DNA of 64,000 nucleotides from a virus: positions 32,001 through 96,000 of IMG/VR virus record IMGVR_UViG_3300024262_000015, one strand, 5' to 3'. Shown one piece after another: positions 19,887 to 61,345 of this stretch. Both the position numbers and the translations under genes were made by a program. The first letter of the stretch is position 1, and each line of letters starts with the position of its first letter. The notes beneath the pieces were generated by a model. That model was not told the DNA's origin. It worked only from the letters and a program-made list of their open reading frames with translations, and ran no database searches.

Positions 19887-19893
19887 GAGATTT

Positions 19894-42371: not shown

Positions 42372-43073
42372 ATGGCTTTAAGATTAGAACAGCCTGGCAT
42401 TCAACCGCTAGGACAATTTGATGGATACGACGACCAAATTGCTACCATTCTTGGTGGTGAAGTTGGAGCGATTGTTGGTATTCTAGTGAGCAATCCGGAC
42501 CTTGCTGCATCTGATGCGGACGGTTCAGATGGTTATATTGGTGCTCCTCCACTACAACGACGTACGATTATTACGCGAAACCTTGTTGCTTCCAACATCA
42601 ATAGGCCTCTAGGGCTTTTGGATGATGGTACGTCTACTGGCTTCTCGTCAACTGGTTACGGAACCCTTTTGGGTGTTGTGGTTGGTGGAACTGCTGGTCG
42701 CCAGTCCGTTGGAGGGGTCGTACTCGGTCCGCCCACCGCACTTGGTTCCGGTAAAATTACTTTCTGGGATAAGCCCGGTTTGTATGCCACCACGCTAGAT
42801 GCGGTTGATAGAGATCCGGTTGACGGACTTCTACCTTCCAACCTAAGTCTCACCGTTGGTTCGCCGCTCTTTGCTACGGATACGGGTCTTTTGACTCCTG
42901 ATGCTGCTGAGAGCTTCGAGGTAGGACTTGTTCTTGCTCGTTTCCTTGAATTCATGACTGATGGTTCATTGGTCAACACGCCGGTTAGCTTGGTAGCCCC
43001 AGTAACTGGCCCCGGATCGCGCCCGCAAACGTTCACCCGAGCGGTTTACGAGTTCTATCCGCCACGCACGTAA
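42372..43073 (+). CDS. Head decoration/cement-like protein (paralog 3), immediately upstream of the MCP
   Basis: PLGLLDDG, GSGKITFW, LFATDTGLLT; SD GAGGA. Confidence 0.7.
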   Translation: MALRLEQPGIQPLGQFDGYDDQIATILGGEVGAIVGILVSNPDLAASDADGSDGYIGAPPLQRRTIITRNLVASNINRPLGLLDDGTSTGFSSTGYGTLLGVVVGGTAGRQSVGGVVLGPPTALGSGKITFWDKPGLYATTLDAVDRDPVDGLLPSNLSLTVGSPLFATDTGLLTPDAAESFEVGLVLARFLEFMTDGSLVNTPVSLVAPVTGPGSRPQTFTRAVYEFYPPRT

Positions 43074-43079
43074 GGTGTC

Positions 43080-43124
43080 TTAGCCCCTTTGGGAATTAAC
43101 CTGGAGGGGCTAAACCCTTTTTTT
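43080..43124 (+). terminator. Terminator-like hairpin between the decoration gene and the MCP
   Basis: TTAGCCCCT...AGGGGCTAA followed by ACCCTTTTTTT. Confidence 0.55.
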
Positions 43125-43168
43125 GGCTGTTAACGAAAGTAGGCAGCTACTAACCAGGAGAAAAAAAT

Positions 43169-46100
43169 ATGAATATGTTTGATAACAAAGGGCAAATCAA
43201 CGCTGGGTCGTTGCAGGAAGCTCTTGGAACGATTGCGAAGTACGCATCGATTCTTGAAGAAAATCAGCCGTCCAATATGGCAATGGCTGGTACGCCGGGC
43301 TTTGATGAGCAGACCCGGAATGACCTTATCTCACGAGCTATGTTTACCCAAGACGGTAAGTATGCGCTTGCGCAGGTAATGGCCAATCCCAATTATTAGT
43401 AATAACGATTACGCAAATGGGATATAAAATCTGACTATATGCGGGAATTTCCGAAAGTTTTACCTACCCTGATATAAGATATAAAACGGCTAACCATAGA
43501 AGGTGGTCGTCTAGAGTCTGGGTAAGAATGGTAAAAATGAATGACGGGCAATCCGCAGGAAAGACAGACGTTAAAAAGATAGACTTAATAATTCAGCAAT
43601 ATGAAGCTGGATTGAAACCTAATAAGATTGTTGAAAACACTAATTATAATTTGGAAGATGTAATTCAAATTATAAAAACCAATCTTAAATGGGGGAAAAA
43701 TAAGTATCTTTCTAATTTAACTCAAGCTGAAGTTCAAGAGGTAATAAAATTATTTGATAATGGATGGCGTTTGAAATGCAAATTTCTTTAAAGTGAGTTG
43801 TAATTCAGTTACCCAACTTCTAAGATCAAATAATCGTAACCCTAGCTTTGAGTTATAAAATAATGCCTGAATCCTCAACGACTAATACGTCAGACATCCG
43901 GGAAAAAGATAGAACCAAGGGGTTTTTATCTAACCCGGTAATGATAGAGTCTGGTCCTTACAAAAATGTAAGGAGCTAAGCAGAAATGACTTAGCCAGTT
44001 CCCCTGAACTGTAACAAAAATGTTCGCCGTAACTTAGACTATCAGGGAGTGTTCCGTAGAGCACTAGTAGTCGATCCGTTAAATTAGGCAGCGGATCTAA
44101 AAATTGGCTGTATGCTGGAAAACCTAAAAGCTTCAATACTTTAACCTTAAAGCCCTTGCACTAAAGCAGGGTTAAATAAACTAAAGTAAAAATTTGAAGA
44201 TGATATAGACAATCAGCAGGAAAAAGATGAAAAACCCTAGCCTGGACAAAAAGCTTTTGAGAACCTTGTATGTAGAAAAGAAAAAAACTGCATATGAAAT
44301 TTCAGAGCTTTTACAAATAAAACAAGAAGTAGTTATCAACTCTTTAAAAGAGAATAATATTGATCACTCTCCTAAACTAAGAAAATATCGTTTAGTAAGA
44401 AAAGCCCCTTTAACTAGGGAACAAAAAGAAGCGATTATTGGGATGGTTTTGGGTGGAGGAAGAATTGTTTCTCATGGGAGTCGAAAAAAAACTTATCATT
44501 TAGAAACTTCTAATCTTGAAAAGGACAAAGATCTAATCCTTTATAAAAAAGGAACCCTCGGGAATCTTTGTAATTTGATAAGAGAAGAAGAAAAAAAAGA
44601 TAAGAAATTTTTAAAATTGATAACAGCTAATCACCAAGAGTTGAAATGGTACTCAGATTTATTTTATAACAACCATAAAAAAGTTATAAAAGAAAATTTA
44701 TTATACCATGTGTCACCTCGTTCGGTGGCTTTTTGGGCTATGGACAAAAGTTATATGCGAACTGAAGATAATCAATTTTGGATGCGCTTCAGTACGTATG
44801 AATTTTCAAAAGAAGAACATAAGTTGCTTCAAGCTATGTTAAAAATAAACTTCAATATAAGAAGTAAGGTTTGTGAATATAAGTGGAAGGGTAAAGTTTG
44901 TAATTACCTTTCTTTAAATAAACGCAACACTTTATTAATGGCCGAATTAACCGAGCCATTTTATAAAGAAGCTAACAGATACATAGTTCATCTTGATCCT
45001 CAACGACTAGAATGCCAATCTTCAGAAAATAAAAACTCTGAATGATGATACAGTCTGACCTTTACTGAGAAGTAAAGAGCCAAGCAGAAATGACTTGGCC
45101 TTGTAACAACCCCTGTGCCTCAGGGTGCTATTCCTCGCTATGACCGGGACATTGATGTCGCTGCGGTTGTCGTATCCAGCAATGGTGCGCCTCCGGAAAG
45201 CCGCGTATTCGGTGACTCGGTTATTGTTCCTGAATTCGAGATCGTTTCTAACCCGACCATCCGTACCTCTGAGGTTCGGCGTCGGCGCTTTAACGTAATC
45301 GACCGTGCTGTTCAAAAGGCACGTCAGGAAATCATGGCGCAGGAGGATGCGAATGGTTTTGCTTCACTCGATGCGGCAGCCGAAGTCGAAAATATCCCTC
45401 AGGATATTGCCGATAGCGGTCTTCTAAAGCGAGATCTTGCTGCGATTAAGCGGCAGGTTGACCATTGGGACCTAGTGACGACCAAGTTCTTCATGAACAT
45501 CAATGAGTTCACGGACATCCTTAACTGGGGTTCCGGTGGTGGTCAGGGCGCAACTGGTGGCGACGTTGATCCTGTTGGAAATCACTATAATTAGTGATAG
45601 TGGCAGCCTTAAGAATGTGAATTCTTTTGGAAAAATTTGGCTATATGCTGGAACCTCCGAATACCTAACAACTTTAAAGATATAGATTAGTCATTGAAGA
45701 CAATCTTTAAAAGATAAAGCAAAAGGTTAGGATGAAACGGACAATCAGCAGGAAAGTTAATGAAAATTTACCAACTAGCGAAGTTAAAAAACTTTTCTTT
45801 GAGGAAAATAAAAGCCGCTTAGAAATTGCCGAGATTTTTAATACTAATAGTTCTTCTATTTCAAAAATTTTGGGTCGGCCTCCCTACCCAAAAAACAAAA
45901 TAGAAGAAATAAAATCTTTGCATATTTCTCAGCTACAAAAGGAATTTATAATTGGCTCTACTCTGGGAGACGCTTCTTTACTTAAAAGAATTAATTTCAA
46001 AAATTGTTCTTTTAAAGTTAGCCATTGTGAAGCGCAAAAAGAGTACTTGTTATGGAAAGCTGATTTTTTAAATCCTTTTGTAAATAGTGTGGCGAGAAGT

Positions 46101-46901
46101 AAAGACAAAAGAGGAAACTCTATAATGTATGGTTTTACTTCATTAAGTCATCAGGACTTTTATCCCTTAAGAGAAATGTTTTATAAAGATAAAATAAAAG
46201 TTGTTAAAAAAGATATTCAAGCTTATTTAACTCCTTTTGCTTTAGCTATTTGGTTTATGGACGACGGTACGGTTTTGAGAAGTGATTGTAGGTTATCTAC
46301 CGACAGTTTTACTTATCAAGAAAACCAACTTTTATCTCAAATGTTAAAAGAAAATTTTGGGTTTAATGTTAAGGTTAGAAAATATATTAGAAATAATAAA
46401 CGTTTTAACTTCCTTTCTTTTACCCAACCTGACCGTCCTAAGCTTAGAGATCTCATAAAGCCTTTTTTGGTAGAATGTATGAGCTATAAGCTTCCTTAGC
46501 CTCCTCAACGACTATATGCCAAACATCTCGTTAAAGAGATGATGATATAGTCTGACCTTTACTGAAAAGTAAAGAGCCAAGCAGAAATGACTTGGCAGGG
46601 ATTTATCCCTTAACAAAAGTGTACGCAACGTGAAATTCTTCAGACTGGGCTTTATGCTCATCTCTGGGGTGCTGATATCATTGTTTCCAAGGTTGTTCCT
46701 CCGGGTACTGTCTTTGGTTGTGCTGACCCTGAGTTCGTAGGGGTTATGCCGATTCGTCAGGACATTGAAGTAATGCCTGCCGATGAGCCGAAACAACTCA
46801 AGCTAGGTTGGATCGTTTCTGAAGAAATTGGTATCGCAATCGTCAACCCGCGTGGTTGTTCCAAGGGTCTAAAGAGCTTGGTTATTAACCCCGCTCCCTA
46901 A
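43169..46901 (+). CDS. Major capsid protein (HK97-fold), join(43169..43391,44023..44079,45116..45575,46622..46901), 339 aa
   Basis: The exons join in frame: ...LAQVMANP-I-RRNLDYQGVFRRALVVDP-L-PQGAIPRYDRD...PEFEI...AQED...DP-V-TQREILQTGLYAHLWGADIIVS...GWIVSEEIGIAIVNPRG*. Total 1020 nt. Confidence 0.88.
43392..44022 (+). ncRNA. Group I intron 1 in the MCP (631 nt)
   Basis: Core elements CTGACTATATGCGGGAA, CAATCCGCAG, CCTCAACGACTA..CGTCAG and GATAGAGTCTG; terminal G at 44022. The 5' junction is inferred. Confidence 0.85.
43528..43857 (+). pseudogene. Degenerate intron-encoded endonuclease (HTH repeats only, frameshifted)
   Basis: QYEAGLKPNKI...; second HTH continues in another frame (KVSCNSVTQLLRSNN); no LAGLIDADG motif. 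Confidence 0.55.
44080..45115 (+). ncRNA. Group I intron 2 in the MCP (1036 nt)
   Basis: P1 GATCCGT/GCGGATC with a U-G pair at 44079; P10 AGGCA/TGCCT; TGCTGGAAA, CAATCAGCAG, CCTCAACGACTA, GATACAGTCTG; terminal G 45115. Confidence 0.92.
44227..45045 (+). CDS. Intron-encoded LAGLIDADG homing endonuclease (motifs degenerate)
   Basis: HTH plus IIGMVLGGG and VAFWAMDKS; the usual acidic residues of GDG/MDDG are partly lost. Confidence 0.8.
   Translation: MKNPSLDKKLLRTLYVEKKKTAYEISELLQIKQEVVINSLKENNIDHSPKLRKYRLVRKAPLTREQKEAIIGMVLGGGRIVSHGSRKKTYHLETSNLEKDKDLILYKKGTLGNLCNLIREEEKKDKKFLKLITANHQELKWYSDLFYNNHKKVIKENLLYHVSPRSVAFWAMDKSYMRTEDNQFWMRFSTYEFSKEEHKLLQAMLKINFNIRSKVCEYKWKGKVCNYLSLNKRNTLLMAELTEPFYKEANRYIVHLDPQRLECQSSENKNSE
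45576..46621 (+). ncRNA. Group I intron 3 in the MCP (1046 nt)
   Basis: P1 CTGT/GCAG with a U-G pair at 45575; TGCTGGAA, CAATCAGCAG, CCTCAACGACTA, GATATAGTCTG; terminal G 46621. Confidence 0.92.
45732..46499 (+). CDS. Intron-encoded LAGLIDADG homing endonuclease
   Basis: IIGSTLGDASL and LAIWFMDDG; LSTDSFT; MSYKL C-terminus. Confidence 0.9.
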   Translation: MKRTISRKVNENLPTSEVKKLFFEENKSRLEIAEIFNTNSSSISKILGRPPYPKNKIEEIKSLHISQLQKEFIIGSTLGDASLLKRINFKNCSFKVSHCEAQKEYLLWKADFLNPFVNSVARSKDKRGNSIMYGFTSLSHQDFYPLREMFYKDKIKVVKKDIQAYLTPFALAIWFMDDGTVLRSDCRLSTDSFTYQENQLLSQMLKENFGFNVKVRKYIRNNKRFNFLSFTQPDRPKLRDLIKPFLVECMSYKLP

Positions 46902-46925
46902 GATCAATAGGTAAGAACGAAAGAT

Positions 46926-46960
46926 GAAAAGGCCTGGGTGTTCCCAGGCCTTTTCTTTTG
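46926..46960 (+). terminator. Intrinsic terminator after the MCP
   Basis: GAAAAGGCCTGGG-TGTT-CCCAGGCCTTTTC followed by a T-rich tail. Confidence 0.9.
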
Positions 46961-46980
46961 TTTTCTGCAAACACCCAGGT

Positions 46981-46994
46981 CAATATAAAGGTAT
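46981..46994 (+). promoter_or_regulatory. Representative copy of a candidate late promoter, AATA-N5-RNRT
   Basis: CAATA TAAAG GTAT; similar elements precede many genes (see findings). Confidence 0.5.
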
Positions 46995-47003
46995 AAAAAG
47001 GAA

Positions 47004-47774
47004 ATGGGAATTAAATTATCCTTGCCTGAAAAAGCCAAGCTGGCAAAATTAGCCGCTTCCGATTTTAAACAGTATGTTGATTGGGGACGAAAAGACTGTC
47101 CTTCACAACAAAGCTATGAACTCTCTTGCTCTCCTAATCCAGATTTTTCTGATTTAAGAATCGAGGCTTTTAATAAATTAGCTACCCCACAAACGCCCAT
47201 TACCAAACTAGCTTTTGATACTCGTCGTATTGACCCTAAAGCTCGTAACCCTAGAGGTAACCTACAAAATTGGAAACGCAGTGCACCGTTTGTTACCAAT
47301 GATGATAAGGAAAAACTAGGCAAGTTTGGAAAAGTCTTTATAGCTACCAAAGAGTTAAAGACAGAGCTTGAAGGACAACAGGGGTGGTTTGATAGCTTTG
47401 CGCGGCTTCTTTACGATACATTACATAGAACTTTACGTAAAAAACAAGGAACAGTAGAGATTTCTCAACCTCAATTTTCTTATCTTGAACAGCTTCTTTT
47501 TAATAGATATCGAATAAGCATGGAAGATGTGGAAAGTTTATCTAATTCCGAACTTCAAAAACGCATTCTATCTAAAGATGAAGAACTTTTGGAACAAGCT
47601 CAGAGCCTTAGAAAGGATGGCAAAATCCCTTCTGATTTGCAAACTTTCTCTAAGGAGATTAAAGAGGAATCTGCGTCAGCAAAAGAAATCGTAAACAACC
47701 TTTTTAAGAAAATAACCTCAGGAAATGGAACGAGAACAATAACAATAACCATTTCCAATCAAGAGGTTAAATAA
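47004..47774 (+). CDS. Hypothetical protein
   Basis: 256 aa; KLAA, KLAT and KLAF motifs. Confidence 0.6.
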   Translation: MGIKLSLPEKAKLAKLAASDFKQYVDWGRKDCPSQQSYELSCSPNPDFSDLRIEAFNKLATPQTPITKLAFDTRRIDPKARNPRGNLQNWKRSAPFVTNDDKEKLGKFGKVFIATKELKTELEGQQGWFDSFARLLYDTLHRTLRKKQGTVEISQPQFSYLEQLLFNRYRISMEDVESLSNSELQKRILSKDEELLEQAQSLRKDGKIPSDLQTFSKEIKEESASAKEIVNNLFKKITSGNGTRTITITISNQEVK

Positions 47775-47775
47775 A

Positions 47776-48387
47776 ATGAGTGTTGGGTTTATTATATCTC
47801 GCGAGCCAGCGATTCTCTTTCCCGTTTGCCCAACTGTATTTATTGTTAGAAATATATCTAGGAAAACCTTATCTATTTTTACCTATCCTGTAAGCATTCA
47901 GCAAACCAGAGATCTAATGGCTATTCCATTTGTATCTGAAGCAGACATCAGAAACTCTCTTTTAAAAGGAGAGCTTTTTGTAAAGGCTAAAGCGGGAGAA
48001 ATAATTGTAGTCAACAGCAACATTGATCTTCTTCAGTTTGATGATTGTCAAAGAGATTTTCTTGAAAGCATTGGAATCACTAAAGGCATTTCAGTTACTG
48101 ACGGAGATCTTCCTTTTGCTTTTAAACAAAACATAAATTTAATTGGACCAACTGATGGGGTCAATAGAACTTTTTTTACTCCTGATGTATTTATCAATGG
48201 TCCTGAGCCTGTAGACAACTCCTTTAAATTACAGCTTGACCATAATGGGCGGCACTTAATTGAAGGCATTGATTACGTTGTAGGAGAGTCTGGAGGTCCC
48301 GGAACAGGTTTTGATACTGTAAATCTAATTTCTTTGACTCCGACTAGCACCAGTAAATTAACTTGCAATTATACCATCCGAATCTAA
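47776..48387 (+). CDS. Putative outer virion beta protein
   Basis: GPTDGVNRTF, HNGRHLIEGIDYVV motifs. Confidence 0.55.
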   Translation: MSVGFIISREPAILFPVCPTVFIVRNISRKTLSIFTYPVSIQQTRDLMAIPFVSEADIRNSLLKGELFVKAKAGEIIVVNSNIDLLQFDDCQRDFLESIGITKGISVTDGDLPFAFKQNINLIGPTDGVNRTFFTPDVFINGPEPVDNSFKLQLDHNGRHLIEGIDYVVGESGGPGTGFDTVNLISLTPTSTSKLTCNYTIRI

Positions 48388-48526
48388 TTAAACGTAAAAT
48401 TAAATACAAATCTTAGAATAAATACATATACAGTGAGACCGATAGTTTACTCAAAGGCCGGCCGAACCATTCAATAAAGCGCCGGATGACGTAAGTCAAT
48501 CCACCCTCACAAATTTAAAGGAAAAA

Positions 48527-50026
48527 ATGGGTTTTTCACGTACTAATGCGCTTAATCAAGCGCTCGATGTAGCCGGCTCTTTTACAGTTAATTCGGCTAA
48601 AGTTCTTACCGACGAATCTGCAGGCTTAGGCCAATCGCAGCAAACCGGAGTTGATGGTTACCTAACTGGTTCCTCACCGACTATTACTCTAACTGCAGCT
48701 TCTGCTACATTCACTGCAGCCAGTGTTGGTAACTTTGTTACTATTACTGGCTCAGGAACGGGTGCAAATAACAGCACTCACTTAATCGTAGCGTTTAGCA
48801 GCCCTACTGTTGTCGATCTTAGTATCGTTGGCGGCGCGGCTGATGCTTTACCGCTACCTTGGACCGAACGCGCTCCATATAACATTGAAGATGACCTCAA
48901 CTTTGAACGTACTGACCGTGCCGCAATTAAGGGTGTTGCCTATGATACGGCTGTAACTCCCTACAGCCGTCCTTCTACCTCTACCACTCTTACGCCGATG
49001 AACCTTGAGCAAATCTCGGGCAAAACCCTTGATGCTAAAGCACTAATCGTTAACCGTACGGAAGAAAACGCTCCAGTTGAAGATGGTTATACCGTACTTG
49101 TTCTTTCTGGTGCCTTCCAATATGCCGATGCTGTAGATCAAACTGGTTATCCGATTAATGATGGATTTGATGCGGGCAACCTTTCGGCTACCTATTGTGA
49201 AATCATCGACCCAAGTACCGAAGCTGGGGTAGTTATTCCGGATGGTTATGCAAATGCTGGTCAACGAATTTATGGTATCGCTCAACAGGGGTCTCAAACT
49301 GAAGGCTTAGGCATTGAAATTGCTTTTTATCGAGTTGCTCTTGGCGACCCGATTACTACGGCAAATCCCTACACTTGGAATGCTGGTCCAGAAATGCCTA
49401 CACAGCTTGACCTTTTCCTCGGTTATCGTACCCAAATGGATGACATGGGGGAAGCAGACCTTCGTGTTACCATGGTTAATGGTCTTATCGGTGATTCTGG
49501 CGCACAGCTTGAGATTAATGATATTCGTCAAACCATTGGTACGGTTCAGGGCGATACGGATCTCGGCACCTATCTTACCAACCAAACGCCGTTTTATATC
49601 TTTGACGACCTAAGCCTTACGCCCACTGTTGTTGAAGCTCTAAACGTTCTTAACCTAGAGATTGGTAACCGAGATTATACAGGTGCTATTCTTACCGATG
49701 GTTATACAATCACCGCGTCTCTTCAACAGCTATCAGATGCTATTGCTGAGAATGCAGATGTTCTTCGTACGATTGAACGTTTGACTGTAAATGCTGCCGC
49801 TGGAGTAGCGCACACTGTTCCTGATTCTCTAACGTATGATATAGATGTCTCAAACAATGGTCGCGGCATGTGGCTTTACTGGCGAGGTGTTCTTAGAGAT
49901 CCGGGCCCTGTTGTTGATGGAAATGACTATGAGGAAACAAGCACATCTTCATTCACTCCTTATGCTACTATTAATAGTGGCGATCACATCAACTACTTTA
50001 TCATAACCGAGACTAACTCTCCGTAG
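48527..50026 (+). CDS. Putative abundant outer virion structural protein
   Basis: 499 aa, T/G/D-rich; four DGY motifs; C-terminal YWRGV...GNDYEE; structured leader. Confidence 0.6.
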   Translation: MGFSRTNALNQALDVAGSFTVNSAKVLTDESAGLGQSQQTGVDGYLTGSSPTITLTAASATFTAASVGNFVTITGSGTGANNSTHLIVAFSSPTVVDLSIVGGAADALPLPWTERAPYNIEDDLNFERTDRAAIKGVAYDTAVTPYSRPSTSTTLTPMNLEQISGKTLDAKALIVNRTEENAPVEDGYTVLVLSGAFQYADAVDQTGYPINDGFDAGNLSATYCEIIDPSTEAGVVIPDGYANAGQRIYGIAQQGSQTEGLGIEIAFYRVALGDPITTANPYTWNAGPEMPTQLDLFLGYRTQMDDMGEADLRVTMVNGLIGDSGAQLEINDIRQTIGTVQGDTDLGTYLTNQTPFYIFDDLSLTPTVVEALNVLNLEIGNRDYTGAILTDGYTITASLQQLSDAIAENADVLRTIERLTVNAAAGVAHTVPDSLTYDIDVSNNGRGMWLYWRGVLRDPGPVVDGNDYEETSTSSFTPYATINSGDHINYFIITETNSP

Positions 50027-50049
50027 GTCTAAATTGATATATATTAGCT

Positions 50050-50828: not shown

Positions 50829-50873
50829 CGATATTTATGCGTAACAGTAGGGCCAAACTTTACTGGGACACAT

Positions 50874-51572
50874 ATGGTTGAAATTGACAGGTTTGACTTA
50901 GCTGATGTAGGAGTATCCGATCAAGTTGAGCTTCAGTCTGATTATACAGGATTTTATAAATCTGTAACTTTAGCTGATACAACCTCAGGTACCGCCACTA
51001 TAGTTGTATCAACAGTCAGCGATAACCTTCTTCATGCAGATAATCCTGTGGAGTCAGGTGATACTGTAGTTATTGCGGGTAATGCAGCAGCCGGAACATA
51101 CACGATTGATGTCATGATAAGTGATACTCAATTTACTGTAGTAGAATCTCTGCCCGACTCTACTGGTGGTACTTCTAGTTTTAGATATCCTCCTGGGGCC
51201 CAAAAGGTTGGATTTTATGTTGCTCCATTAAGCTTTACATCTGATGCTCCTAATGTTCAAAAAGTTATGGAGGCCATGGACGGCTACAAGCTTGCTGAAG
51301 AGTCTTTATCTTTAGCCATTAATTATGTCCAAAACGGATTTGAGGAAATAACTTATTCGGGAACCAAAGCTACAAATATAACACTTTGGGAAACGGCATC
51401 AAAACTAATTAAAGTACGAGAATCTCAACTAACCTATGATGGAAATAATGTATCTCAAGTTATCGATATTCAATACGATGCACTTGGAATAGAAAAGTAC
51501 CGCTTAACTCAAACCTATGTCTATACTGGAAACATGATCACATCTTCTACCCAAACCCGCACTGATGTATAA
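50874..51572 (+). CDS. Putative virion structural protein
   Basis: VESGDTVVIAG..AAGTYTI beta motif; DGY; TY-rich C-terminus. Confidence 0.55.
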   Translation: MVEIDRFDLADVGVSDQVELQSDYTGFYKSVTLADTTSGTATIVVSTVSDNLLHADNPVESGDTVVIAGNAAAGTYTIDVMISDTQFTVVESLPDSTGGTSSFRYPPGAQKVGFYVAPLSFTSDAPNVQKVMEAMDGYKLAEESLSLAINYVQNGFEEITYSGTKATNITLWETASKLIKVRESQLTYDGNNVSQVIDIQYDALGIEKYRLTQTYVYTGNMITSSTQTRTDV

Positions 51573-51618
51573 TAACGTTATATAATAAATAGCCCTGTTT
51601 AAGTTTTAAGGAAGAACC

Positions 51619-51933: not shown

Positions 51934-51970
51934 CACAATTAATAGTTAGTAAAACTTGGAAAGATGTTAA

Positions 51971-52906
51971 GTGAGAGCATTGATCCTCTCAGGTGGAGCC
52001 GGTAGAGGTTCGTTTCAAGTCGGAGTATTAAGAGGGTTACTAAAAAAAAATAAAGATTTAGATTATGACATATATGTTGGAAGCAGTGTCGGAGCTTTCA
52101 ATGCTGGGATTTTAGCTGGTGGACCTTTAAAAGAAACCGTACCAATTTTAGAAGATATTTGGCTTAAGAAAATCACTGGCAGACATTCTATTTGGCACCA
52201 CCTTTTAGCTAAAAGATTATTAATATTTGTAGCTATATTTGCTGGATTTATAAACCTAGCTTTTTTTTCTTTCCTAGCAGACAACCCTAAATGGTTAACT
52301 ACACTTCTTGCTTTAATTGCTTGGATTTGTATTTATTTGCCCTATAGGATGGTTAAACAAACACGCTCTGTTTATACAGCCACACCCTTAAAGCGAGAAC
52401 TTAGCAAGTACATTTTACAAGAACGAATTTTGCATGGTGGAAAGTCTTTAGTGGTAGCAGCTACTTGTCTTAGGACGGGAGAGCTTTTTTACTTTACGGA
52501 AAGCGATGTAGATCTAATTGAAGGAATTCATGCCTCGATGGCTTTTCCGGTTTTCTTTCCTCCAGTTTTTGTAAGAAACGAATGGTGTACTGATGGAGGA
52601 TTAAAAACTTATGCAGATATAAGTTCGGCTATAGATTTGGGAGCTACCGAAGTGGATGTAATTCTTACTGTTCCATTAGAAGAGTATAAAGATTTTAAGC
52701 CTACTATTTTTTCTCAAGTTATTCAGGTTATAGACGTTGTAACCATGGGAATTATCCAAAACGATATAAAGAAACACCGCTTCTCCGATGTTAAAATTAA
52801 TATTTACATGCCACCTAAAGGATTTTCTCATAAAAACCCTTTAAAGTTTGAACCAGCCTCTCTTAAAAAATCTTATAATGTTGGAGTTAAAGTAGGAGAA
52901 AAATGA
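51971..52906 (+). CDS. Patatin-like phospholipase with an inserted transmembrane hairpin
   Basis: LSGGAGRG, GSSVG and DGG motifs; two hydrophobic helices at about aa 83-125. Confidence 0.88.
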   Translation: MRALILSGGAGRGSFQVGVLRGLLKKNKDLDYDIYVGSSVGAFNAGILAGGPLKETVPILEDIWLKKITGRHSIWHHLLAKRLLIFVAIFAGFINLAFFSFLADNPKWLTTLLALIAWICIYLPYRMVKQTRSVYTATPLKRELSKYILQERILHGGKSLVVAATCLRTGELFYFTESDVDLIEGIHASMAFPVFFPPVFVRNEWCTDGGLKTYADISSAIDLGATEVDVILTVPLEEYKDFKPTIFSQVIQVIDVVTMGIIQNDIKKHRFSDVKINIYMPPKGFSHKNPLKFEPASLKKSYNVGVKVGEK

Positions 52907-53976
52907 GCAAGCTTATTTATCTAGATGCAAATGCCCACGTCCCCATGAATAAGCAGGCCATCAAAGCTTATTGTGAATATCATGAGTCTATGGACGGTCA
53001 TGGTCATCCACTTTCAATGACTACTCCTGGTATTGGGGCCTCAATTAAACTGGAAGAAGCTCGTGAAAATATAGCTAACTGTATTGGTAGCGAAGAGGCA
53101 GGAAACGTTGTATTTACTTTTAACTGCACTCAAGCATGTGAATGGGCTATCAAAATCTTAGCTGATAATTGTCCTGTAACCTTTATTTCTGAGGGTGAAC
53201 ATTCTGCTGTTACTATGGCCTATAGAAAGTGGATAGGAGAGCCAAAATTTATAACTGAATATGTAGAAAACCATGATGGCTATAAAGACGCTGGCCTTGG
53301 GTGCATAAGAGTTCAAAACGAAACGGGATTAATTTATCCTGATTTAATCCACATGCCTTCCAAGTTATTATTTTGTGATATGAGTCAAGCTTTGGGCAAA
53401 ATAAATGTAGATGTTACAGGATTAGATATTGCCGCTTTCGGAGGTCATAAATTTGGTGGAACTAACTTAGGTTTCCTTTATTTTAAGGATCCTTCTTTAT
53501 GTGAAGAACTTAATTCTGGGTCTAGATATTTCCTTGATGCTCCTGGTACACCTAATGTGGCGGCTGCTGTAGCTACTTCTGTTGCTCTTATGGATGCGAT
53601 TCGAACTTTAGATGAACGCACCGAAAAAATGCGACAATTCCAAACTACTATTGAAGATTATTTTCAAAATAAAAACATTACAGTGGTTCATAAAGACAAG
53701 CCTCGTTCCCCCAATACTACTTTTATACACCTTCCTCACGCAATAAACCTTATCCATTCATTGTCTCAAAAGGGAATATTTGTAGGACTTGGCTCAGCAT
53801 GCGGTGCTCTACATGAAGGGTTAAGTCCTTTTATGAAATACTCTGGATATAATAATTCTTCTTCTCAAGACTTTATGAGGATAAGTCAATTTGGAGAATA
53901 TGGTATTGAGGAAGCCAAGCTGTTTATAGACCAATTTGATAAAAGCTTTGAAGAAGTTTTTCATAAGCCAGCATGA
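52903..53976 (+). CDS. Cysteine desulfurase (NifS/IscS family, PLP-dependent)
   Basis: IYLDANA, QNETG, D.SQA.GK, GHKFGG (PLP lysine), GTPN, GSAC (catalytic Cys). Confidence 0.9.
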   Translation: MSKLIYLDANAHVPMNKQAIKAYCEYHESMDGHGHPLSMTTPGIGASIKLEEARENIANCIGSEEAGNVVFTFNCTQACEWAIKILADNCPVTFISEGEHSAVTMAYRKWIGEPKFITEYVENHDGYKDAGLGCIRVQNETGLIYPDLIHMPSKLLFCDMSQALGKINVDVTGLDIAAFGGHKFGGTNLGFLYFKDPSLCEELNSGSRYFLDAPGTPNVAAAVATSVALMDAIRTLDERTEKMRQFQTTIEDYFQNKNITVVHKDKPRSPNTTFIHLPHAINLIHSLSQKGIFVGLGSACGALHEGLSPFMKYSGYNNSSSQDFMRISQFGEYGIEEAKLFIDQFDKSFEEVFHKPA

Positions 53977-54293
53977 AAAAGCCGAAGAAAATAAAATGTG
54001 AAATTTGTGGTTTAAAACAGCCTAAAGCCTTGCACTTGCATCATCTGACAGAACGGGTTGAGGCTAACTGTACCAACCACCCTTTAAACCTTCTGGTAGC
54101 CTGTGGTTCTTGTCACAGCTTAATTCATCAAAAAATTATCGAGGTTATAGGTATATGGCCTAGCTCTAACCCCACAAACGGGCGTACTGTCGTTTTCAAG
54201 AAGGAGGGGAGGTGTAACATACCAGAACTTGAAAACGTCTCACCACCTCATATATCCCAAGCACCAAGGATGAAAATTTATGGGAAAACGTAA
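53973..54293 (+). CDS. HNH endonuclease
   Basis: CEICG...LHLHH...N..LNL...CGSCHSLIH. Confidence 0.8.
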   Translation: MKKPKKIKCEICGLKQPKALHLHHLTERVEANCTNHPLNLLVACGSCHSLIHQKIIEVIGIWPSSNPTNGRTVVFKKEGRCNIPELENVSPPHISQAPRMKIYGKT

Positions 54294-54600: not shown

Positions 54601-54637
54601 TCTCTCCGACTAAAGAGCAATATCACAGCATTTATGC

Positions 54638-55295: not shown

Positions 55296-55338
55296 TCACC
55301 ACCCTTATTCTCCAGGCATTTAAAATCATTTAAATAGT

Positions 55339-55674
55339 ATGACTACTTCTATGTTTGCCAACCCAGGCCAAACGGTTACATTAACTGTTCAAACTGTTGA
55401 TGGTTATGGAGAAAGAGCTAATGTCGCTGCCCTTCCTAGAATAATGAGCGTTTTGTATCCTAGTCTCTCCCCGGTCTTAGGGTATCCACAAAACATGTCC
55501 AATGTTCAAACAGGGCTCTATGCTCATCAACTCACTCTTCCTACAGGGCCAGTTTCTTTAGGAACCTTTGTTGTTAGCACACGCTATGTAGCTTTGAATG
55601 GCAGTATTGTTTGGGACACTTTTCTTATTCAAGTAGCTCTCCCATTTGGAAATAGTTCGCTTTCCCCTTGCTAG
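55339..55674 (+). CDS. Ig-like structural protein
   Basis: PGQTVTL...TGLY...LGTF resembles the N-domain of the 56185 protein (PGDAIVL...TGKY...LGVW); DGY. Confidence 0.5.
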   Translation: MTTSMFANPGQTVTLTVQTVDGYGERANVAALPRIMSVLYPSLSPVLGYPQNMSNVQTGLYAHQLTLPTGPVSLGTFVVSTRYVALNGSIVWDTFLIQVALPFGNSSLSPC

Positions 55675-55680
55675 GACCCC

Positions 55681-56151
55681 ATGAAACACGATCTTAAAGC
55701 TCAAATTGATTTGGTTTGGAAAAAGGTGGCCGCAGAACCTAAGCCTGTTGTTCCCAACCTTCCTACCCGAAGCCCAGATGACCCAAACCCTAAAGTAAGA
55801 CAAAAACTAATAGAATACAAAAAAATACTCGGCCTAGCTCACGAAAATGTAGATGTGCTAGAAAAACTTTTGCCACTAATTAAAGACGATAGGGAGCGTA
55901 AATACCGAGAAGACAATTCTTTAAGATCCGCTAAAGATAGAGTTAAGCTTTATAAACAATTTGTAGACCTGCTTCCTCAATTTAAACTATTTGAGGATAA
56001 ATCTATTGAAACAGAACTGGATGATATCAATCCTAATTTAGCAGAATTATACACTACTGCTAATCCTACAACTCTAAGAACCAATTTACGAGTTGAAATA
56101 CAAATGAATAAACAAAGAATTGTAGATATTACATTAGGCCGAAGCGATTAA
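55681..56151 (+). CDS. Hypothetical protein
   Basis: 156 aa; KVAA near the N-terminus. Confidence 0.5.
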   Translation: MKHDLKAQIDLVWKKVAAEPKPVVPNLPTRSPDDPNPKVRQKLIEYKKILGLAHENVDVLEKLLPLIKDDRERKYREDNSLRSAKDRVKLYKQFVDLLPQFKLFEDKSIETELDDINPNLAELYTTANPTTLRTNLRVEIQMNKQRIVDITLGRSD

Positions 56152-56184
56152 ACTTCTCTTCGCATACATTCATATATTAGTGTT

Positions 56185-57132
56185 ATGGCTATTGTCTGCC
56201 CCCCAATCATACCTCCTCAACCAGAAATAGTAATCCCGACCCGAATTGTTCCAAGAAGTGAAATAGCTCAGCCGGGAGATGCTATCGTTCTTTGCATGGA
56301 GTTTCGTGGACCCAATGGAGAACTAACCAATCTAGACGAGGTTCCTTCTATTGATATTGTTGAGCCTAATGGAAGAGTACGCACAAGCCAAAGCAAAGGC
56401 ATTTACCAACAGGGTACAGGAAAATATGCTTTTAATTTTGAAGTTGGGATAGCTCCAGATCTGGGTGTGTGGACCGATATTTGGAAAGGTATTATTAATG
56501 GGTTTGAGGTCTTTGGGTCTGGAAACTTTGTAGTAGCCACCTCTCAAATGCCCGCTCTTAACACAGATGGGTATAAACATTTAGGCGATGATCCGGGTTT
56601 TGACTACTCTCAAAATGCTATCTGTAATATAAATAGCTTAATTCAAATGCTTAGGGCTCGTTTAAGAAGCTCTGGAAAACGCCCTACTCACGATGAATAT
56701 GGCAACACTATCTTTGAAAATTGTGACATTTTTACTGTAGAAGAAATGGTAACCTTCCTGTGTACGTCTCTTGAACACTTTAATGCAGAGCCAACCTTCA
56801 CGTTTTTTAGCTTTGAAGATACCCCAATTGTTCAAAACTTTGGCTCAGTCTTAGTTCAGGGCGCTACTGTTTTTGCTTTAGGCGCTCAAGCTCTAGTAGA
56901 AAAAGGCAGAGAGCTAAACATTACTGATAACGGAATTAGCTTTACTCCACCTCAAGTATCTGATTTATTAAATACTCAATACTCCACCGAAATGACGCAG
57001 TGGATTGAAATGGTGCAGCGCGTCAAGAGAAATATGAAACCGAATCCTCTGGGGCTTGGTACATTCAGACCTCTTTCCGCTGCACCTCAAGTATTACGTT
57101 TACGCTGGCTTCGAGCTAGGCGGATCTTTTAA
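56185..57132 (+). CDS. Putative head-tail adaptor/neck protein with an Ig-like N-domain
   Basis: LRARL...FT.EE....L..SL..FNA.P...ITDNGISF pattern typical of myophage adaptors (inference). Confidence 0.55.
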   Translation: MAIVCPPIIPPQPEIVIPTRIVPRSEIAQPGDAIVLCMEFRGPNGELTNLDEVPSIDIVEPNGRVRTSQSKGIYQQGTGKYAFNFEVGIAPDLGVWTDIWKGIINGFEVFGSGNFVVATSQMPALNTDGYKHLGDDPGFDYSQNAICNINSLIQMLRARLRSSGKRPTHDEYGNTIFENCDIFTVEEMVTFLCTSLEHFNAEPTFTFFSFEDTPIVQNFGSVLVQGATVFALGAQALVEKGRELNITDNGISFTPPQVSDLLNTQYSTEMTQWIEMVQRVKRNMKPNPLGLGTFRPLSAAPQVLRLRWLRARRIF

Positions 57133-57143
57133 GGCTTGGAAAA

Positions 57144-57290
57144 ATGACAGACCAAGAAATCGAAGAATTAATTTAAGAGCATAAGAGGTTAGATAGGCGG
57201 GATGAAAAACGAACCTTCATCTTATATATGATTGCCATGGGTATCATCCTTACATCCTGTGTCATTTCGTTTGTTTGTATCTTATTATAG
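57144..57290 (+). pseudogene. Small membrane protein with an in-frame TAA
   Basis: MTDQEIEELI*EHKRLDRRDEKRTFILYMIAMGIILTSCVISFVCILL*. Confidence 0.35.
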
Positions 57291-57310
57291 GGCTCTTTTC
57301 ATATAGTTTT

Positions 57311-57826
57311 ATGTCACTGCAAAAAGAGTACTCAAAACTTCTTAGCAAGATAGCTAAATTAGAAGCACAAGCCCAAAGAATAAAATTAGCTTCCGATTTT
57401 AGAACTGAAGAAGACCGCAAAAGTTACGAGCGATTTAAAGCCAAAGAGGACTATATTAATTCTAAAGTAAAGAAAGAGGATTTTTCTGAAGTCGAGGAAT
57501 GGCTTTCAAGCTCGGACTCAGACTTGAGAGCAGCGGCCTTTTACAATGTGCCTAAAGAAATAGTTCTAGATCTAGTGGACTTAAAAGATCTCGTCACCGA
57601 TCCCAACCCTGATATTAGGCGGGCTGCAGCAGAAAATTTCTTTAAAGAAATTGGAGCAGACTCTGAACTTATGGAGATTGTTTTAGATGAAGAAGGTTAT
57701 GGAATGCTTAGAGCACTAGGGTCAAAAGACTTTGCGTTTGATATTCTTGGCCCTTATAAAGACCACCCTGAAGTAAGAAAAGAATTAGAGTCATTTAGAA
57801 ATCCGCCTGAAGGTTTTTGGGACTAA
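57311..57826 (+). CDS. HEAT-repeat-like protein
   Basis: SSDSDLRAAA and DPNPDIRRAAA; KLAS motif; likely start at MSLQ. Confidence 0.55.
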   Translation: MSLQKEYSKLLSKIAKLEAQAQRIKLASDFRTEEDRKSYERFKAKEDYINSKVKKEDFSEVEEWLSSSDSDLRAAAFYNVPKEIVLDLVDLKDLVTDPNPDIRRAAAENFFKEIGADSELMEIVLDEEGYGMLRALGSKDFAFDILGPYKDHPEVRKELESFRNPPEGFWD

Positions 57827-57946
57827 GACTCTCTTTGCAAGAACAGCCAAGCATCCCCGACAATATAGTTCTCCCTTTTCCAAGAATACTGTATTCGCAT
57901 GACGTTTACATTGGGAGCATTGGGGGCGCAGGAGAACGGGATCCAT
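57791..57946 (-). CDS. Small zinc-finger protein (51 aa, not in the ORF track)
   Basis: MDPVLLRPQCSQCKRHANTVFLEKGELYCRGC... Confidence 0.45.
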   Translation of the reverse strand: MDPVLLRPQCSQCKRHANTVFLEKGELYCRGCLAVLAKRVLVPKTFRRISK

Positions 57947-57993
57947 AAAAGAGCAGGATAGCACCGGTCAGCTTATATTCTCATATAAGATTC

Positions 57994-58173
57994 ATGGACC
58001 TTAAAAAAATTGGCGATGCGGTAATGTTATGTTGTGGAAGGAAGCGTTGTCCTATCCTCACCAAATCTAAAGACGGTAGTTATGATCTTACTGATGATTT
58101 TGGTGGGAAGGTAAAGCTAAGCAGGGAACAGCTTTTATTAATTAGTGATGCTATAATTCAGTTAGATGATTGA
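57994..58173 (+). CDS. Small Cys protein (59 aa, not in the ORF track)
   Basis: MDLKKIGDAVMLCCGRKRCPIL...LTDDFGGKVKL; overlaps the next start codon. Confidence 0.6.
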   Translation: MDLKKIGDAVMLCCGRKRCPILTKSKDGSYDLTDDFGGKVKLSREQLLLISDAIIQLDD

Positions 58174-58456
58174 ACTGCTTGCTTGCCTTGGTTTAATGTG
58201 GATTCTTAAATACGGAACCATTTTAGACACTCCCAGAAATATTATTAAATCCAAAAGCAAATTTTTAACTGAACTTTTGAATTGCAGTTTATGTTTAGGG
58301 TTTTGGTGTGGGGTTCTAATCACCCTTCCCCTTTGCCTTTATTCATTTACCATACAATATCTTTTGTTGCCATTAGCTTCGTCAGCAGTTTGTTGGTCAC
58401 TGGATTCGGTAGTTGAGCTTATTCATGTAGCTACTAATAAAATTGAAAAATTATAA
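58166..58456 (+). CDS. DUF1360-like membrane protein
   Basis: R.......LTELLNCSLCLGFW motif with TM helices. Confidence 0.65.
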   Translation: MIELLACLGLMWILKYGTILDTPRNIIKSKSKFLTELLNCSLCLGFWCGVLITLPLCLYSFTIQYLLLPLASSAVCWSLDSVVELIHVATNKIEKL

Positions 58457-58498
58457 CTCAGCCAAAAATAAAAGATATTCATAAACCCATATGATAGT

Positions 58499-58930
58499 GT
58501 GGGCTTTCTTGACCAAACATTAAAAGTTTTTTCAGCTAAACTTAGAGTTCCCCAATTATTTATTGAAGGAACAGAAAAATTTAGTATTACCAATTCCTCC
58601 GTTTATCAGCGTGTAGGATTTGTACAACCTTATAAATATAACCAAATTATAATTAGAACACCTGGGCTTTATTTAGTCGAGGTATGCTTTGCTTTTGCAC
58701 CAACCGACTTTCCTCCTGAATTTCCCGGCTACTCTATCTTTGCACAAATGCCTGGACAAAAGGCTATTGTTGTAAGCTCTGGATCAGTGTCTACCAATAC
58801 TTCTCCCGATACAATTACCGTGTCTAAAAGCTTACAAATCCGAAAATCTACTGTTCTTTCTTTTCAATTCACTACCCAATTTGCTGGACGCTTGACTGAG
58901 GGTTCGGGATTCACCTTAATTTTAACTTAG
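58499..58930 (+). CDS. C1q/TNF-like jelly-roll protein (putative fibre tip)
   Basis: IIIRTPGLYLVEV beta motif. Confidence 0.4.
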   Translation: MGFLDQTLKVFSAKLRVPQLFIEGTEKFSITNSSVYQRVGFVQPYKYNQIIIRTPGLYLVEVCFAFAPTDFPPEFPGYSIFAQMPGQKAIVVSSGSVSTNTSPDTITVSKSLQIRKSTVLSFQFTTQFAGRLTEGSGFTLILT

Positions 58931-58936
58931 GATCAA

Positions 58937-61345
58937 ATGGCTATTCAGGTAAAATTAACTAACCTAACAAATGAAGGCGTAGAAGTAGATGGCTATGGAA
59001 TTAATCCTCCTGCTGGAACTACGTTAACTCTAGATTTTAGTGATACAGATTATGAAAACATTAAGCCCGCCCTAGAGACTGCTGCGGGGATGGGAGAGAT
59101 TTCTGTAGGGATCAGATTTGTTCCAGGCTCCCCTCCTTTAATAACAAAAGAGGATGGTGTAATTATTGTTCCAGCTACCTCTGCAATGAATTTAAGTGGA
59201 GGAGTAGATGTAGATCTTTCTTCTGATGGCTATACTGCTGATGTTTTTATTCCTGGGGTTAGGGCTACGGTTTTAAATTCCCCTTCTGGAGCAGATGAAG
59301 TTTTAAAAAGCCTGGATGCTAACACTGCTTCTTGGCAAGAAGAGGCAATAATAACCGAAGAATATTTAGTTGGACTTCCTGGAAGTGGTGCTCCATATTC
59401 CTCTATACAAGCAGCTAATGACCAACGAATTTTAGATGGCCATGTAACAGTAAATAACTCTGCTCTAGTTAAAGTTTTGCCCGGTCGTTATGTAGAAGAT
59501 GTTTCTATAAGAACCCCTGGAATTGTAGTTACCGCCGGATACACGGGCGATCCTAAGGGAGGGATAACAAACAACGCTAATTTCTCTACCTTGGTTGGAA
59601 CACTAACTATAGATCTTTCAATTAATCCCGGCACAACTATTTCTGAAAACACCATCCGATGGGAACAGGTAGGATTAGAAAACCAAACAGGATATTGTGT
59701 TGAGTTTTCAGGGTCTATAGCCCAAAAAGTTATCTTTGTTAACGTCAGTGCTGATGGAAACGGGATTCTACGAATGACCAATGGAGGCTTTGGCGGCTCC
59801 TTATCCAGTCCTTATTCTGACGACATTGAGGCACCTACTGCGTCTGCTTGGTATTCAAGTGTATGGTGGTATGGGGGATGGCTGCGCACTGTGTCAGGGT
59901 CTACTAATCCAGTTCTTAAACACGAAGCAGGACAGTTTATAGGTACAGAAACCGCTCTATGGAGAGATGATCGTAGTTTAACTTCAATAGAGTGCTCTTC
60001 TACTCGCGCATGCCTTCTTACTGATGGTTCTGCCTTGGGCACCGTTCTTATGGCAGGCACTAATGCTTTTATTTTAACTCGAAGTTCAATAACTGCTTTT
60101 GATGCAATAGCTATTGATTTCCAAACCGGAAGCTTAACCTTAAGTGATTGTAGTTTATCTGCTTATAATGTCGTTAATAGTATTGCTGGTCCTTCTTCAG
60201 GACGCTTACGTTTTTTTAACCTAAGACAGTTAGATACCGCTCCTTTTACATTAGGAACAGCATGGGATGTTCCTAATGCAGATGTCCAAAGCCTTTATAA
60301 TTCGGTTGGTGCGATACTAAATTTTAGTGATAGCTCCGCCCCTTATAAAGAACAAGATCCTAGCGCTCTTGTCCAGTTACAAAGCAAAGAACGAGGTTTT
60401 CTCCCTCCCGTAATGTCATCTTTTGATCGACTAAACATTGCTACTCCGGCTAGAGGATTAGAGGTTTATGACTCAGATATTAATTACCCCTTTCATTTTA
60501 ACGGAATCCAGTGGTCTGGAGACGGTTACTATTCGCCCCTCGTTCCAAATAATTGGGCACCCCCTATTCCAAATAGCACATCTGAGGCTTTAGATGATCT
60601 AGCAGGAATACCATTTCCTAACCGGGTAAATATATCTGTTAACAAATCTACAATAGATAACTATCAACGAGTAATACCTACCCTGCGTTCACAAACTGGA
60701 CCCAATTTAACTGGAGCTTACAATGGCGGGGGAATCGGGAATAAGCCTATCTTAGGGCTTAGAGGATTTTCGGGCCTTCCTTTAGGAGATATAGATTCCA
60801 TTGAATTTACATGGGAAGATCTTTTACCTGAAACAACTACTTTACTATTATCCTCAGGGCCTGTAGTAGGAGATCATGGAGAGCCTTTGGGATCTTCAGC
60901 CATTGCTTTACTTCCATTTATAAATTTAATTGTTGACCTTAATGGAGATGGCAGTCTAATAAAAATCTTTAACATGTCCCAAACCCTACCGCCCACCAGT
61001 GATACAAACTTTACTGTTACCGCTCTTGGTCCTGATAAATACAACTATCTTTTTGACCCATTGGTAAATACCTTCGAGATAGTACTAGGCCTTCCTCCGG
61101 TTCCCTTTGTCGCGCCTTTTATTAATAATGGCCCGTCTTGGTTTGCCCAGGCCTTCCGAATGGAAGACATTATTGCTCTGGGTGCTTATCCAAACGCAAC
61201 GCTCATAGATATAGCCAGTGGAGATGGTGGGATGCCTAAAGATGTTGTTACGCCTTCTATTGTATTAGCTATGGGCGGATCTAGCAATGTAGATGCAGGG
61301 CTTAAGATAATAGAAGAAATAAAATTTAATGGAGTAAGGCAATGA
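58937..61345 (+). CDS. Tail fibre/spike-like protein
   Basis: YSSIQAA...VKVLPGRYVEDV beta-helix start; SALVQLQSKERGFLPP.M...GLEVYD fibre repeat; three DGY motifs. Confidence 0.65.
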   Translation: MAIQVKLTNLTNEGVEVDGYGINPPAGTTLTLDFSDTDYENIKPALETAAGMGEISVGIRFVPGSPPLITKEDGVIIVPATSAMNLSGGVDVDLSSDGYTADVFIPGVRATVLNSPSGADEVLKSLDANTASWQEEAIITEEYLVGLPGSGAPYSSIQAANDQRILDGHVTVNNSALVKVLPGRYVEDVSIRTPGIVVTAGYTGDPKGGITNNANFSTLVGTLTIDLSINPGTTISENTIRWEQVGLENQTGYCVEFSGSIAQKVIFVNVSADGNGILRMTNGGFGGSLSSPYSDDIEAPTASAWYSSVWWYGGWLRTVSGSTNPVLKHEAGQFIGTETALWRDDRSLTSIECSSTRACLLTDGSALGTVLMAGTNAFILTRSSITAFDAIAIDFQTGSLTLSDCSLSAYNVVNSIAGPSSGRLRFFNLRQLDTAPFTLGTAWDVPNADVQSLYNSVGAILNFSDSSAPYKEQDPSALVQLQSKERGFLPPVMSSFDRLNIATPARGLEVYDSDINYPFHFNGIQWSGDGYYSPLVPNNWAPPIPNSTSEALDDLAGIPFPNRVNISVNKSTIDNYQRVIPTLRSQTGPNLTGAYNGGGIGNKPILGLRGFSGLPLGDIDSIEFTWEDLLPETTTLLLSSGPVVGDHGEPLGSSAIALLPFINLIVDLNGDGSLIKIFNMSQTLPPTSDTNFTVTALGPDKYNYLFDPLVNTFEIVLGLPPVPFVAPFINNGPSWFAQAFRMEDIIALGAYPNATLIDIASGDGGMPKDVVTPSIVLAMGGSSNVDAGLKIIEEIKFNGVRQ

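Follow-up and report, generated by a model that had tools for sequence, protein, structure and literature searches.

An Asp-Gly-Tyr tripeptide concentrated in outward-facing virion proteins of a clade of huge phages, a possible surface sequon

Protein glycosylation is in several systems directed by short sequons, such as N-X-S/T, the Campylobacter form D/E-X-N-X-S/T and the Bacteroidetes form D-(S/T)-(A/I/L/V/M/T). Tyrosine can also serve as an acceptor, as in the O-glycosylation of the S-layer proteins of Paenibacillus and Thermoanaerobacter, for which we know of no consensus of the form Asp-Gly-Tyr (DGY) and for which a literature search for a tyrosine-glycosylation motif found nothing relevant. 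In viruses, shifting N-glycan sequons build the 'glycan shield' of HIV Env and influenza HA. In phages, glycosylation of the virion by phage-encoded glycosyltransferases is described for mycobacteriophages (Freeman et al. 2023, Cell Host Microbe, as cited in PMC12619734), with the glycans, according to the citing article, at the C-termini of capsid and tail-tube subunits (PMC12619734). Here we analyse DGY in a window of the virus contig IMGVR_UViG_3300024262_000015, the window being the whole stretch of 64,000 nt (bases 32,001-96,000 of the single 139,564-bp contig) to which all position numbers refer unless marked otherwise. The contig is a fragment of a huge myovirus, ∼33% complete by CheckV. 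Data from this contig and its relatives support the view that DGY behaves like a context-free tag on outward-facing virion proteins; we tentatively favour, at somewhat less than even confidence, its interpretation as a surface sequon, most plausibly for tyrosine glycosylation.

In a six-frame scan the window contains 14 DGY, of which 13 lie in frame of long + strand open reading frames (ORFs) (Table 1) and one, at 14284, lies out of frame within the portal gene; the minus strand has none. The 13 in-frame sites coincide exactly with those of the original prediction, and its tally of 12 copies in six proteins (233, 499, 232, 111, 315 and 802 aa) plus one in a 357-aa desulfurase-like protein was reproduced as well. 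Expected numbers were calculated on 69 non-overlapping ORFs, 35 before and 34 after 42.3 kb. The 34 late ORFs (6,573 aa) carry 13 DGY, compared with 0.83 expected from the composition of each protein and 1.96 from a dipeptide-based estimate (DG x GY / G). The corresponding Poisson P is 7e-12, the runner-up among all tripeptides reaching 6e-4, and in the shuffling test that had been proposed none of 5000 within-protein shuffles reached 13 (mean 0.82, maximum 6). An artefact of composition is ruled out by the per-protein expectation, the dipeptide-based expectation and the shuffles. The first 42 kb had been said to hold dozens of DG-x and no DGY, and the 35 ORFs of this part (13,790 aa) indeed contain 49 of the former and none of the latter; as 1.67 DGY were expected and 17% of shuffles also had none, this absence alone is not significant.

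The majority of DGY copies of the contig sit beyond the window. ORFs after contig position 74,300 (20,624 aa) contain 45 against 2.8 expected (P 8e-38), and those before it (23,815 aa) contain 2 against 2.8. Both early sites are best read as chance; one of the two proteins has a homologue in a complete relative (G002, 458,729 bp) that reads KQY at this place, and the other has no homologue there. The enrichment is limited to the exact tripeptide; in the late proteins every single-residue neighbour (NGY, EGY, DAY, DSY, DGF, DGW and others) has the frequency expected. The late + strand genes contain GAYGGNTAY 45 times in the reading frame, 4 times in other frames and not once antisense, and the codons vary, as the original prediction had noted; both point to selection at the protein level, as it had proposed. 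A DNA-level motif, i.e. a restriction, methylation or recombination site, is ruled out by these frame and strand counts. Codon use inside DGY is close to background, except that GGA is scarcer and GGT commoner. The carriers had been called mostly unrelated, and all-against-all BLASTP of the 17 carriers agrees: there is no mutual similarity at the DGY-bearing regions and no internal repeat, and just two weak matches, both between the same two proteins and away from DGY, were found. Paralogy or a shared repeat domain can therefore be ruled out.

Among carriers in the window, the 499-aa protein has four DGY, a number reached by 0 of 20,000 shuffles. Its two small beta domains show a borderline likeness to domains of tailspikes or tail fibres (VIA-align Z 7-8.8), and Foldseek found no PDB match to the model at E 0.001 or better. 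The 233-aa protein looks like a capsid cement or decoration protein. It has no match in Pfam, PHROGs or NCBIfam, and the phage cement families seen on 13-16% of the members among its ESM Atlas neighbours are only a lead; both its DGY stand at aligned positions in G002, and ORFs upstream of the capsid gene also carry two DGY in 2 of 3 relatives. The three DGY of the 802-aa protein were reached by 5 of 20,000 shuffles; the protein has no BLASTP homologue in G002 at 1e-5, although an ORF of equal length (802 aa) and with 4 DGY lies in the corresponding part of that genome. The G002 homologue of the 315-aa protein (48% identical) has DGY at the aligned position, and that of the 111-aa protein (116 aa, 37% identical) has two, neither at the aligned position. 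As the 232-, 111-, 315- and 802-aa carriers match nothing in Pfam, PHROGs or NCBIfam, the labels 'adaptor' (315 aa) and 'fibre' (802 aa) of the original prediction remain guesses. The lone DGY of the 232-aa protein, which has no G002 homologue at E 1e-5, could be chance. The site in the desulfurase-like enzyme (Pfam 4e-25; NifS-like NCBIfam matches under the curated cut-offs) is most simply taken as a chance site: all three relatives covering the region keep the gene, and the aligned position in G002 is SGI.

Downstream of the window the contig encodes the sheath, whose fold was confirmed by Foldseek, tube-like proteins, a 1738-aa protein in the position of the tape measure, the baseplate and two large proteins with LamG (2214 aa) and dockerin (970 aa) domains. 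DGY occurs 10 times in the 2214-aa protein, 9 times in the 970-aa protein, 4 times in a 531-aa protein, 3 times each in a 1819-aa protein and the sheath, and once in a baseplate J-like protein. In the 970-aa fibre protein, a dockerin type I-like pair of calcium-binding repeats lies at aa 582-647 (Pfam E 1e-4, just below cut-off), which hints at possible binding to a cohesin-bearing host surface.

Inner proteins (tube, tape measure, portal and protease) are free of DGY. In families collected from relatives, the tube has none in 66 sequences, the tape measure none against 8.3 expected in 39 sequences, and the tube-initiator-like family none against 3.1 expected in 53 sequences. In an empirical control for kinship among the inner sequences, 12 of 1753 tripeptides of similar expectation were likewise absent from the pooled inner set, a mild sign that inner proteins avoid DGY. 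A cleavage motif of the prohead protease was ruled out by the same distribution, since the carriers are sheath, baseplate and fibres, and the portal, the protease-bearing protein and adjacent large proteins lack DGY. Of the original idea of a tag on outer virion proteins, the part that stands is a context-free tag on outward-facing proteins; it does not extend to the major capsid protein, the main outer protein, or to the chance site in the desulfurase-like enzyme.

No cultured relative of the phage was found. A tblastn search of INPHARED with the 499-aa protein had no match. The sole match of the sheath among INPHARED and cultured phages is Eggerthella phage LE2-3 (25.5% identity over 35% of the length), and terminase matches among cultured phages are at 25.5% identity or below. 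Metagenomes hold at least 120 sheath homologues at 54-84% identity, and among 120 of these exactly three DGY were found in 102, two in 14, and four or five in 4. Around sheath homologues 80 IMG/VR loci were collected with two search patterns, one of which contained DGY and biases the sheath itself only; the non-sheath ORFs of these loci contain 399 DGY against 55.6 expected. In G002, the structural region (240-400 kb) has 75 against 10.0 and the other 300 kb has 9 against 12.0. The 1819-aa family from the loci has 198 DGY against 14.9 expected, spread over 49 alignment columns; DGY is common at four of these and rare at the rest. For the 499-aa protein, a pattern search of IMG/VR found nothing, and cluster representatives include 183 homologues; the 150 listed hold 144 DGY against 15.5 expected in a bimodal manner, 87 having none and 63 having 1-6. 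Searches for DGY-free relatives with single proteins gave nothing, or one 7.5-kb high-GC IMG/VR contig (L090). This contig, of a different lineage, has a homologue of the 499-aa protein beside a 783-aa sheath-like ORF, and DGY is absent from the three longest of its open frames (783, 523 and 405 aa); with the sheath-like ORF as query only contigs of 10.6 kb or less were found. DGY-free lineages sharing the 499-aa family may exist, as far as a contig as short as L090 can tell.

Sites move between homologues while counts are kept, which is what the proposed check for non-homologous positions in relatives had looked for. In 31 homologous late-gene pairs of our contig and G002, 22 DGY columns are shared, 19 are found only in our contig and 16 only in G002, compared with 2.3 and 3.3 expected over whole proteins. 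In both genomes the lineage-specific sites by themselves reach 6-8 times the expected number, a ratio that alignment error could somewhat inflate. About half of the sites thus differ between relatives at 36-55% identity, and the number per protein stays similar (e.g. 4 and 3, 1 and 2, 9 and 10). In an alignment of 23 members of the 499-aa family, DGY in some places stands where other members have ordinary xGx or xTx turns, and elsewhere it shifts by a few residues within one loop. Moreover, DGY pairs occur at every spacing of 3-10 residues, including the tandems DGYDGY, DGYADGY and DGYDGYADGY, which fits a linear recognition unit and speaks against a single fixed structural unit.

The mapping of sites onto predicted structures, which had been suggested, used two AlphaFold2 models, of the 499-aa protein (pLDDT 79) and the sheath (mean pLDDT 67, ∼75-92 over most of residues 40-510). 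According to the DSSP strings, 6 of the 7 sites covered belong to neither helix nor strand, in parts modelled with confidence; in the 499-aa model three DGY are in loops and one is in a long strand. The sheath sites are in the N-terminal part (residues 40-510), which we take from general sheath architecture to be the outer part or outer insertion.

DGY shares with sequons an excess beyond composition and an independence of fold and position, with non-homologous sites and turnover. We suggest that it would act as a short surface tag that needs no particular context and sits mostly in loops and at the tips of hairpins in outward-facing virion proteins, and that the tagged set would comprise the cement-like protein, neck or fibre-like proteins, the N-terminal part of the sheath, the baseplate periphery and the two giant fibre proteins. 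As the number of tags per protein is kept and the exact places are not, a trans-acting factor would be implied that reads DGY wherever it is exposed. The likeliest reader would be the glycan-building machinery of the clade itself. Of 41 records, the 28 that extend at least 35 kb downstream of the sheath include 25 with PF00535 matches at a distance of 30-44 kb on that side. In one relative (G001, cluster at 278-296 kb), the genes directly after two DGY-rich fibre genes encode GT4, four GT2, GT11, Glyco_trans_1_2 and a methyltransferase, together with a hexapeptide acyltransferase, a PhyH dioxygenase, WbqC and DegT, and every gene of this cluster has no DGY; a 700-aa ORF in it is GT-B-like in ESM Atlas, which is only a lead. 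The products of such GT2, GT4, GT11 and amino-sugar genes, which directly follow the fibre genes richest in DGY, would link a sugar to the hydroxyl group of tyrosine and clothe tail and fibres in glycans. The attachment itself, the role of tyrosine as acceptor and that of the cluster as writer we infer from sequence. The fuller version of this proposal, in which DGY would be the acceptor sequon of a new phage-encoded cytoplasmic tyrosine O-glycosylation system that coats sheath, baseplate, fibres and capsid cement in a whole clade of huge phages, is possible, and we regard it as on the unlikely side.

Several observations weigh against glycosylation of DGY. To our knowledge a tyrosine-directed sequon of this form is not known, and a search of the literature on a DGY or Asp-Gly-Tyr motif in phages or virions, with subscription journals and bioRxiv supplements outside reach, found nothing relevant. 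DGY is missing from the major capsid protein of this phage and of three relatives, and from all 66 sequences of the tube family, so that both targets of the only established phage virion glycosylation lack it. The original prediction had advised a search of the rest of the genome for glycosyltransferases or kinases; on the contig neither a glycosyltransferase nor a protein kinase was found by Pfam on 124 of 135 ORFs, and a six-frame scan for PF00535 was negative. Since the contig, of the low completeness given above, ends 29.5 kb downstream of the sheath and 467 nt past the gene of the 970-aa protein, just short of the cluster position in relatives, this lack is uninformative and not supportive. 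Three of the 28 long records have no PF00535 match within 38-40 kb downstream of the sheath, and two of these (L032 and L037) still have 13 DGY against 1.2 expected; the L037 record has GT2 genes ∼60 kb upstream. The cluster is otherwise near-constant in the clade and offers no contrast between presence and absence. A promiscuous cytoplasmic enzyme might impose avoidance of DGY on other proteins, and non-virion proteins have no such avoidance in either genome, as the counts for early ORFs of the contig and the non-structural part of G002 indicate. The conservation of roughly half of the sites within well-folded domains would be explained equally well by a structural role. Clusters of this kind could instead serve DNA hypermodification, a use mentioned in a recent article (PMC12619734), or some other purpose.

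The alternative that survives best, to which we give a small chance, is that DGY is itself a small binding element, with Asp and Tyr paired at a turn and touching a polysaccharide of the host surface, a metal ion or particulate matter; its many copies would make tail and fibres weakly and multivalently sticky, and no enzyme would be needed. Asp, Gly and Tyr commonly make the contacts in binding sites, and the limitation of DGY to outward-facing proteins, its highest density in the distal fibre proteins with LamG and dockerin domains, its tandem copies and its loop sites would all suit this role. However, generic stickiness should also accept DGF, DGW, NGY and EGY, which are all at expectation in late proteins, and binding sites normally need a three-dimensional context, whereas the flanks of DGY are unrelated and its positions drift. 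Moreover, the apparent avoidance in tape-measure and tube families is not predicted by it.

It is less probable still, and in our view unlikely, that another phage protein reads DGY as a docking or assembly tag, either a decoration or fibre protein attaching at many places or a folding helper. Genes for trigger factor and a DnaJ homologue are present in the early region of the contig, and DGY is confined to proteins that build the outside of the virion. Interfaces, however, are usually fixed, which the turnover of about half of the sites does not suggest, immediate tandems such as DGYDGYADGY are difficult to envisage as distinct places of docking, and large internal proteins that need folding help (the tape measure and the 1318-aa protein) have no DGY.

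An equally slim chance is left for a favoured structural turn, in which an Asp-Gly tight turn with an aromatic residue would be inherited within beta-rich tail folds and need no reader. The sheath sites lie in a strongly conserved segment with many invariant neighbours, 22 of 41 sites of our contig are common to G002, and hydrophobic residues often stand just before DGY. Inheritance alone does not account for the excess of lineage-specific sites, and the equivalent turn formers NGY, DGF, DGT and DGW are not enriched; the members of the 499-aa family with no DGY have xGx turns at the same places as the 63 with 1-6, and the beta-rich tube proteins have none. Finally, intrinsic chemistry with no sugar, i.e. 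Asp-Gly isomerisation or tyrosine cross-linking that hardens or ages the virion surface, is purely speculative and very improbable: Asp-Gly is the sequence most prone to succinimide formation, tyrosines can cross-link oxidatively and the strictness of all three residues would fit a chemical requirement, but no oxidase or cross-linking enzyme was found among the 124 ORFs scanned and nothing in the data points to partner residues.

With the surface sequon as the preferred reading, an exact tripeptide at 16 times expectation, confined to the virion exterior and kept through turnover across hundreds of uncultured large phages, implies a reader. If a glycosylation system were that reader, DGY would be a new sequon with a tyrosine acceptor, the first tyrosine-directed one, and would guide the first sequon-based 'glycan shield' on a phage tail. 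Tails and fibres of huge phages would then be glycan-coated, a point relevant to host recognition, protease resistance and evasion of defence. In addition, DGY provides a simple sequence marker for exposed virion proteins of this clade, most of which have no annotation.

Table 1. Positions of DGY-bearing proteins, the DGY-free contrast set and neighbouring features (window coordinates unless marked otherwise)
Feature	Position	Strand	Remarks
233-aa Gly-rich protein	42372..43073	+	DGY at residues 17, 53 (nt 42420, 42528); directly upstream of major capsid gene
499-aa multi-domain fibre/spike-like protein	48527..50026	+	DGY at residues 43, 186, 239, 391 (nt 48653, 49082, 49241, 49697)
232-aa protein, no known family	50874..51572	+	One DGY, residue 136 (nt 51279)
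357-aa cysteine-desulfurase-like PLP enzyme (Aminotran_5)	52903..53976	+	One DGY, residue 125 (nt 53275)
111-aa protein, no known family	55339..55674	+	DGY at residue 21 (nt 55399)
315-aa protein ('adaptor' in the original prediction, unverified)	56185..57132	+	DGY at residue 128 (nt 56566)
802-aa protein ('fibre' in the original prediction, unverified)	58937..61345	+	DGY at residues 18, 97, 529 (nt 58988, 59225, 60521)
DGY-free contrast set	11064..31710	+	Large terminase, portal, 1318-aa, 786-aa, tyrosine-phosphatase-family and 1585-aa proteins; 0 DGY each
Major capsid protein gene	43169..46886	+	Four coding pieces: 43169-43390, 44022-44081, 45100-45576, 46620-46886; 0 DGY
LAGLIDADG endonuclease ORFs in two capsid intervening sequences	44227-45045, 45732-46499		
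87-aa ORF in one capsid intervening sequence	43528-43791		
GIY-YIG/NUMOD3 endonuclease gene	33285-34406		
HNH endonuclease gene	53973-54293		
970-aa DGY-rich fibre protein gene	Outside window: L003 11185-14097		
Translation and folding helper genes	Outside window: L004 4832-5194, 10735-11617; L005 5402-6655, 15255-16190		
Two TnpB/Cas12f-like TNB-domain ORFs	Outside window: L001 485-1186, L003 14131-14541	-	One is the last ORF before the contig end

The genes around the carriers have features of their own. The major capsid gene, identified by a PHROG major head protein match on 45115-45594, is interrupted by three intervening sequences of ∼0.6-1.0 kb each; its coding pieces were mapped by tblastn of the open frames of three relatives, which are intact there (279-359 aa). 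No Rfam intron family reached its gathering score in 42-64 kb. The portal gene (12971-15988) has a LAGLIDADG_3 domain of the intein type at aa 632-691, and the 1585-aa protein (24725-29482) has Hint, intein-splicing and LAGLIDADG domains at aa 104-487, followed by a head-protease-like segment; inteins probably sit in these two head genes. Between portal and capsid, a 396-aa protein (22749-23939), kept in all three relatives covering the region, has an N-terminal tyrosine/dual-specificity phosphatase domain, and may act as a packaged effector or have some link with tyrosine chemistry. Among unannotated late genes, those for a patatin-like phospholipase and the desulfurase-like PLP enzyme (51971-53976) overlap by 4 nt, the latter with a GGHKFGG motif. 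Outside the window the contig encodes ribosomal protein S21, a peptide deformylase with a SEC-C motif, thioredoxin, trigger factor and DnaJ homologues, all translation or folding helpers, and no tRNA genes were found in these parts.

Compared with known systems, the closest parallel is that of the mycobacteriophages, where glycosyltransferases near structural genes are proposed to coat the virion with glycans, as a large cluster after the fibre genes might do in relatives of our phage; no tripeptide sequon is described for it in PMC12619734, and the DGY carriers here are sheath, baseplate, fibres and a cement-like protein. S-layer glycosylation likewise uses tyrosine as glycan acceptor on a bacterial surface protein, but it takes place outside the membrane, by an oligosaccharyltransferase and at few fixed sites. 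HIV Env and influenza HA likewise preserve the number and density of their sites as these shift within surface loops; those, however, are eukaryotic viruses using host N-glycosylation, whereas DGY belongs to a tailed phage and has no known reader. Sequon-directed protein glycosylation in general reads a linear motif of 3-5 residues where it is exposed, with an acidic residue two before the acceptor and with gain and loss of sites in loops, and DGY is similar in all these respects. Unlike the known sequons, DGY would have tyrosine as its acceptor and a fixed glycine as its middle residue, and the process would be cytoplasmic and encoded by the phage.

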